From the IMG/VR virus record IMGVR_UViG_2737471848_000025: a DNA stretch of 4,135 nt. The stretch is one strand, 5' to 3'. Positions 2,408 to 2,542 of this stretch are shown one piece after another (position 1 is the stretch's first letter; every line of letters starts with the position of its first letter). The DNA is from a virus. Taxonomy: Duplodnaviria; Heunggongvirae; Uroviricota; Caudoviricetes. The notes below the pieces were generated by a model. That model ran no database searches and had not been told where the DNA came from. It was given only the letters and a program-made list of their open reading frames with translations. Made by a program: the position numbers and the translations under genes.

Positions 2408-2542
2408 ATGCATACGGCTTTTGAGTTCTGGGTTCGCAAGACATTCGGCAATCGCTACGACCTGACCCGTGATGTCGACGGCTTCTACTGCCGTGAAGTT
2501 GTGAAACGAATGTTTGACGTGTGGTGCCACTGCCGTGGATGA
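2408..2542 (+). CDS. Small Cys/His-containing protein, 44 aa (MHTAFEFWVRKTFGNRYDLTRDVDGFYCREVVKRMFDVWCHCRG); not in the ORF track
   Basis: GGAGG at 2397-2401 lies 6 nt upstream of ATG 2408, which sits 3 nt after the upstream stop. It fills the gap before the excisionase-like gene. Contains C28 and a C-terminal C-H-C cluster. Confidence 0.4.
   Translation: MHTAFEFWVRKTFGNRYDLTRDVDGFYCREVVKRMFDVWCHCRG

Follow-up and report, generated by a model that had tools for sequence, protein, structure and literature searches.

Small proteins of the exo-xis region of phage lambda and of Shiga-toxin (Stx) phages have reportedly been studied in the Wegrzyn and Donaldson laboratories. They include Orf60a, Orf61, Orf63, Orf73 and Ea22. 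Another protein of the region, Ea8.5 of lambda, is a small Cys/His protein that is a zinc-binding hybrid of a homeodomain and a zinc finger. The small conserved genes of the region are non-essential and shift the lysis–lysogeny balance and prophage induction (PMC3824215, PMC8614690), and oxidative stress acts through the same region (PMC4699033). The gene set between ea22 and xis is variable, and in lambda it comprises ea8.5 and orf55 (lambdap35) (PMC8614690). In the Rac prophage of Escherichia coli K-12, rcbA (ydaC) lies directly upstream of xisR in a related intR-xisR cassette. The gene described here occupies the corresponding place in a Shiga-toxin-type prophage, and it is not among the genes treated in the exo-xis literature (PMC8614690, PMC3824215).

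We analysed a stretch of DNA of 4135 nt, referred to as the window, which comes from a lambdoid prophage of the Shiga-toxin type and covers the distal end of its early-left operon. Positions 2100–2900 are 99.8–100% identical to VT1-Sakai, YYZ-2008, phi330 and prophages of E. coli O145:H28 and O157:H7; in the O145:H28 and O157:H7 prophages, the element adjoins mlrA (yehV). The subject of this study is a 44-codon open reading frame (the small ORF; ATG at 2408, TGA at 2540–2542) encoding MHTAFEFWVRKTFGNRYDLTRDVDGFYCREVVKRMFDVWCHCRG. The genes and signals of the window are as follows:

261–428, plus strand: DUF2737 gene
425–883, plus strand: first of two Ead/Ea22-like genes
870–1544, plus strand: second of the two Ead/Ea22-like genes
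1541–2074, plus strand: DUF551 gene
2071–2157, plus strand: 28-codon hydrophobic ORF
2162–2404, plus strand: DUF4222 gene, 80 aa (Pfam PF13973, E = 9e-16)
2397–2401, plus strand: GGAGG, the Shine-Dalgarno sequence of the small ORF as read from the sequence, in the last codons of the DUF4222 gene
2408–2542, plus strand: 44-codon small ORF, PHROG 3871
2538–2542, plus strand: point at which 1 nt has been lost compared with the commoner 48-aa form, giving an early TGA and the loss of the last four residues (L-x-V-V/L)
2551–2556, plus strand: TGAGGT, the xis Shine-Dalgarno sequence, whose TGA is the small-ORF stop in the 48-aa form
2561–2815, plus strand: xis, encoding an XisR-type excisionase (DUF1233; Pfam PF06806, E = 2e-29), annotated xisR
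2849–4135, plus strand: int

The order of two Ead/Ea22-like genes, DUF551, DUF4222, the small ORF, xis and int places the small ORF in the exo-xis class, which is a positional class and not a homology family; exo lies outside the window, and the placement was judged from the ea22-like side, the xis side and the plus strand. Within the region, the small ORF lies past ea22, where gene content is variable, in the same position as ea8.5 and orf55 in lambda and rcbA in Rac. Homology to these genes was rejected, with hhalign probabilities of 0.5% for Ea8.5, 0.1% for orf55 and 0.08% for RcbA. The small protein also differs from Ea8.5 in its predicted fold and in that its Cys/His residues are not conserved, and the neighboring DUF4222 protein gave no BLASTP alignment with RcbA. 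Pfam indicated no homology to Orf60a, Orf61, Orf63, Orf73 or Ea22, which belong to the same operon. The small exo-xis accessory proteins appear to be the likeliest functional class for the small ORF.

The small ORF had originally been described as unannotated. The 44 codons at 2408–2542 are as stated, but the gene is annotated in RefSeq and in several phages. The identical protein in RefSeq E. coli genomes is WP_000556583.1. The gene is annotated in phi330 as well, BP-4795 lists it as ORF3 (YP_001449240) and JLK-2012 as gp03, whereas it is left out of the original VT1-Sakai record (AP000400.1) and of a few others. The counterparts in RefSeq, BP-4795 and JLK-2012 belong to the same family, PHROG 3871, agree in length and in their position before xis, and are all labeled "hypothetical protein". 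When a match was required to cover at least 80% of region 2380–2575, the ORF region was present in 439 of the 5426 complete E. coli genomes, EDL933 among them, and the entries sampled from these 439 carried the ORF as a "hypothetical protein". The small ORF is a real protein, already catalogued in Shiga-toxin-type prophages.

The translation signals are those that had been predicted: GGAGG at 2397–2401 lies at a good spacing, 6 nt 5′ of the ATG, which itself follows the DUF4222 stop codon (2402–2404) by 3 nt, and Shine-Dalgarno-like purine runs occupy the same place upstream of the gene in most homologous loci. We compared 19 loci, comprising 16 from contigs chosen as one genome per species, the window and two diverged phages. 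The frame, with its start codon, was intact in all 19. These loci span at least 10 genera of Enterobacterales (Escherichia, Shigella, Citrobacter, Pantoea, Serratia, Raoultella, Trabulsiella, Superficieibacter, Scandinavium and the unclassified Enterobacterales bacterium CwR94), and one further compared record is labeled Chryseobacterium. The 18 distinct coding sequences ranged from 57% to 99% nucleotide identity, and the frame stayed open down to the lowest value. Their pooled Nei-Gojobori pN/pS was 0.24 in the small-ORF frame, which Jukes-Cantor correction lowers to about 0.10. Values were 1.3–1.6 for the two shifted sense frames and 1.5–1.8 for two antisense frames. The third, codon-aligned antisense frame gave 0.37, but it contained 2–4 stop codons in every sequence. 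Variable columns numbered 25, 22 and 39 of 43 at the first, second and third codon positions, respectively. The strong Shine-Dalgarno sequence, the retained purine runs, the low pN/pS and the excess of third-position variation bear out the earlier view that the small ORF looks translated, and on this comparative evidence it very probably is.

The small protein matches PHROG 3871 over its full length (hmmscan E = 1.1e-32, residues 1–44 on profile positions 1–44 of 48), a family with 493 loci in IMG/VR and members in 49 deposited phages, including phiP27, Fels-1 and Klebsiella prophages. An exhaustive search of 1.84 billion cluster representatives with the small-protein profile found only 33, so that the family is narrow and centered on phages of Enterobacterales; this search recovered members lacking the Cys/His residues and no annotated distant relatives. 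Against Pfam and NCBIfam, the small ORF matched no family at E ≤ 0.1, and a profile search of PDB sequences gave chance matches only (E about 1). Structure searches of the PDB and of viral models revealed no relative of known function; in the Foldseek comparison with viral models, the matches were uncharacterized proteins, and the sole good one was a family member. Literature searches with the accession, the PHROG identifier and peptide strings gave no matches, and those with BP-4795 ORF3 yielded nothing relevant. The domain also forms the N-terminus of a few larger phage proteins, and the use of a module of about 40 residues in this way fits a self-contained, independent binding domain. One such case is a 139-aa metagenomic protein, P0081 (88–507 of contig L102), in which the domain precedes a Lar/Elf1-like zinc ribbon; P0081 and P0079 also match PHROG 343. 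Homologs of 77–85% identity occur in two records assigned to Flavobacteriia, namely Chryseobacterium sp. 18061 (L013), where an sbcB-like gene lies near the homolog, and Elizabethkingia phage EKP1 (OM284015.1). Mislabeling or contamination of these records is more likely than transfer across phyla.

The AlphaFold model built with the family alignment (pLDDT 89.3) has helices at residues 2–13 and 30–43, with residues 14–29 forming a loop with a β-bridge between them. The parts of the small ORF that bear on this model are as follows:

2447–2488, plus strand: codons 14–27 (G-N-R-Y-D-L-T-R-D-V-D-G-F-Y), the most conserved stretch, in the predicted inter-helix loop
2489–2491, plus strand: codon for Cys28, just before predicted helix 2; replaced by Ala (7), Val (2) or Gly (1)
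2525–2533, plus strand: codons for Cys40-His41-Cys42, inside the C-terminal turns of predicted helix 2

Over 78 distinct family sequences, the structural core residues F5, G14, Y17, D22, G25, Y27 and E30 are 96–100% conserved; among those in the loop, the values are 100% for Y27, 99% for Y17 and G25, and 96% for G14 and D22. The loop encoded by codons 14–27 is, we infer, a probable interaction surface.

We favor, as a probable reading, that the small ORF belongs to the early-left (exo-xis) operon as a dispensable accessory gene translated in tandem with xis, and that its two-helix product acts through loop-mediated binding of a partner. The product would be a cytoplasmic protein of 44–48 residues of PHROG 3871, confined almost entirely to temperate phages and prophages of Enterobacterales, and predicted to fold as a two-helix hairpin joined by the conserved loop G-x-R-Y-D-L-T-R-D-x-x-G-x-Y. 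Its gene is the last accessory gene of the exo-xis region, which is presumed to be transcribed from pL; given that position, the protein would be made early after infection or induction, from the same mRNA as Xis and Int. Like other small exo-xis/pL proteins, it would most probably bind a protein partner through the conserved loop, and this partner is more likely to be something that many phages or hosts share than any single excisionase.

The dispensability of the gene is indicated by a deletion allele. Stx2a prophages (Stx2_95 and relatives; 1407–1548 of contig L106) have a deletion equivalent to window positions of about 2260–2495, which joins DUF4222 at about codon 32, out of frame, to the last 15 or so codons of the small ORF. 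Both genes are destroyed, and xis and int are left intact, which implies that the small ORF is dispensable for maintaining a prophage. O157:H7 PV15-279 and other genomes share the junction at 100% identity, and 65 records match it at ≥99%. The question of whether the ORF is disrupted in close relatives, raised with the original prediction, therefore has a divided answer: it is intact in the 19 loci, but mostly deleted in this lineage of Stx2a prophages. In annotation pipelines, the remnant of the deletion appears as a protein of 38 aa, named either "hypothetical" or "DUF4222". High-identity matches to other prophages start abruptly inside the small ORF, at window positions 2446 and 2495 (query positions 67 and 396), suggesting that the ORF often holds mosaic breakpoints between the early-left and int-xis modules.

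The small ORF sits beside the excision genes in Shiga-toxin-converting prophages of EHEC (including EDL933 and Sakai-type strains), and small exo-xis genes are known to shift prophage induction and hence toxin production. As a real, selected yet dispensable gene, it is a reasonable candidate for a knockout.

The alternative that survives best is that the hairpin binds Xis itself, independently of metal, and stabilizes it or modulates its DNA binding; we regard this as unlikely, though it deserves more weight than the other alternatives below. Of the 16 species-level loci, 12 have an excisionase-like gene directly downstream and another three have one no more than 1.4 kb away, and a stop codon embedded in the xis Shine-Dalgarno sequence would favor roughly equimolar synthesis of the two proteins. 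In addition, one ORF (2962–3336 of contig L021, from the read-assembled Logan accession DRR526068; two contigs in the database) fuses the complete small protein in frame to XisR. However, at least four families are represented among the neighboring excisionases (DUF1233/XisR, HTH_17, lambda-type Exc and PrtN-like), with further AlpA-like and lambda-Xis-like sequences below the Pfam threshold, and specific contact with all of them is improbable. The Serratia homolog resides in the nin region, between a NinG-like gene and NinH/Q-like genes, and at two Pantoea loci the homolog precedes a gene for a LexA-N-domain protein. The fusion belongs to a single cluster (P0075), and a search of 5.8 billion proteins with the fusion sequence found no second fusion of the small protein with an Xis beyond it. 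Prophages that have lost the gene retain intact xis and int, which also speaks against an Xis partner. The upstream neighbor varies as well, being DUF4222 in E. coli and other small genes elsewhere. The diversity of the excisionases implies that the linkage is positional: the run of accessory genes ends with this gene, the integration module comes next, and the gene is not bound to any one Xis. The small ORF has no excisionase or recombination directionality factor homology by Pfam, and its predicted fold is a two-helix hairpin without a wing. A specific role as a recombination cofactor, as the original prediction had suggested, is possible, with a low probability similar to that of direct Xis binding.

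The Cys/His cluster at the C-terminus had been read as C-x(12)-C-H-C; the spacing is actually C28-x(11)-C40-H41-C42. Over the 78 distinct sequences, conservation is 87% at C28, 77% at C40, 64% at H41 and 83% at C42. All four residues are kept in only 37 of the 78, and the three Cys together in 48; C40 and C42 are both present in about two thirds of distinct members, and in 19 of the 78 at most two of the four positions are Cys or His. C40 is replaced by R, S, V, F, A and others, H41 by Y, E, D, K, A and others, and C42 by A, L, R, F and others. Such changes occur even between near relatives, C40F being present in nine loci whose identity to the window copy is about 98%. Citrobacter and Salmonella have C40R, Salmonella, Pantoea and Serratia have H41Y or H41E, and Raoultella has C42W. 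The distant members P0057, P0067 and P0074 have Ala at 28 and no ligand at 41 or 42. The nature of the replacements (A, V or G at 28; A, L, F or W at 42; polar or charged residues at 40 and 41) makes these look like packing or surface positions rather than ligands.

A zinc knuckle formed by C-x11-C-H-C, serving as a metal-dependent cofactor of Xis/Int that affects the direction of recombination, would account for a C-terminal third that contains three Cys and a His, for their joint retention in many members, and for a gene that usually lies directly upstream of xis and is once fused to XisR. The ligand positions are, however, among the less conserved of the core, and the single losses C40R, C40F, C40S, C42A, C42R, H41Y and H41E are found in otherwise very similar proteins that are under purifying selection, while the distant members lack ligands as described. 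In the XisR fusion, the four positions read A, V, H and F. In the model, C40, H41 and C42 are consecutive within helix 30–43 and would point to successive helix faces, and C28 lies about 12 residues earlier, two residues before the helix; judged from helix geometry, the tetrahedral arrangement of a knuckle is apparently not attained. The small protein has no zinc-finger profile match in Pfam or NCBIfam, the PDB profile search gave nothing relevant, and the protein is unrelated to the zinc-binding Ea8.5. A metal-binding knuckle is therefore very unlikely, and the original prediction, which had named non-conservation of the Cys/His positions as grounds for discarding it, is contradicted by exactly that finding. 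The Cys/His residues are not an obligatory metal site, and with the attraction of a metal knuckle gone, the small ORF is at present one more conserved hypothetical phage protein. Nevertheless, three Cys in 48 of 78 members is more than a helix alone needs, and a subfamily-specific role, such as an inter-subunit metal site or redox function, is possible. There is a slim chance that in the Enterobacteriaceae core subfamily C40-x-C42, with C28, forms a zinc clasp between two subunits or a redox-sensitive thiol switch; if so, a protein coupled to Xis could tune the excision and induction of Stx prophages under oxidative stress.

We next consider the junction with xis. A stop codon within the Shine-Dalgarno sequence of the next gene is typical of translational coupling. 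At most loci with the 48-aa form, the stop is part of TGAGG(T/C), followed 5–8 nt on by the start of the next gene; among the exceptions are L075, which has TAG, and the copies from Pantoea, Serratia and CwR94 (L015, L016 and L018–L020). In the window, 18 nt separate the stop from the xis ATG, and the stop is not inside the xis Shine-Dalgarno sequence. The 1-nt deletion that gives the 44-aa form is apparent from the comparison of CGT GGG CTG AAA GTT TTA TGA GGT in L079 with CGT GGA TGA AAG TTT TAT GAG GT in the window, and it leaves TGAGGT intact at 2551–2556. The 44-aa form has itself diversified (75–77% identity to the BP-4795 and JLK-2012 copies), and the C-terminal tail is therefore dispensable. 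With the stop in or just before the xis ribosome-binding site, finishing ribosomes would be delivered to the xis start, and the spacing suggests that the small ORF is translationally coupled to xis. The small ORF and xis share a reading frame in the window, separated only by the TGA (2540–2542) and six sense codons. Read-through of this TGA would yield a fusion resembling that of L021; read-through as a conserved feature was rejected, as the 48-aa forms have the two genes in different frames and a second stop is present in BP-4795. Predicted folding of the junction RNA was no better than that of shuffled sequence (z = 0.23), and no promoter, terminator or Rfam family was found at the small-ORF locus, which fits a plain operon gene.

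The same junction could be explained if the small ORF were a leader whose translation alone sets the supply of ribosomes to the xis start, the peptide itself having no function. The overlap or close spacing of the stop with the xis Shine-Dalgarno sequence in most loci and the variable tail (44-aa and 48-aa forms) are compatible with such a leader. The purifying selection on the amino acid sequence is nevertheless strong, with Y27 invariant and Y17 and G25 nearly so, the predicted structure is a confident folded one, and the domain is also found away from xis and inside larger proteins. The junction also lacks an RNA structure hiding the xis start that translation could open. We consider a leader without a functional peptide to be even less probable than the zinc knuckle, and continue to favor an accessory protein that binds a partner through its loop.

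That the small ORF arose by chance, or is conserved as a DNA or RNA element and not as a protein, has next to no probability despite its shortness, the presence of 66 ORFs of at least 25 codons in the 4.1-kb window and a 90-codon antisense ORF that overlaps it: a chance ORF is effectively refuted because the frame is open in all compared loci and selection is frame-specific, the antisense frames having pN/pS above 1 or stops in every sequence as given above, and an element is opposed by the want of an Rfam match, stable fold, promoter or terminator.

Two further features of the window were observed upstream of DUF4222. The tandem Ead/Ea22-like genes represent a local duplication: their N-termini are near-identical over 17 residues and their C-terminal halves are divergent. 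Both begin with GTG, and each overlaps the end of the preceding gene. The 28-codon ORF at 2071–2157 on the plus strand, MMNWPEAFTAVGVAIAVAFILYSLFRWG, resembles a single membrane helix; its start codon and the stop of DUF551 overlap in ATGA, and 4 nt separate its end from the DUF4222 start. It carries no annotation in the RefSeq genome, phi330, BP-4795 or JLK-2012; the short reading frame missing from these annotations is the 28-codon one and not the 44-codon one. The 28-codon ORF is kept intact, at 25–28 aa, in seven sequence variants, including those of Pantoea L015 and L021.
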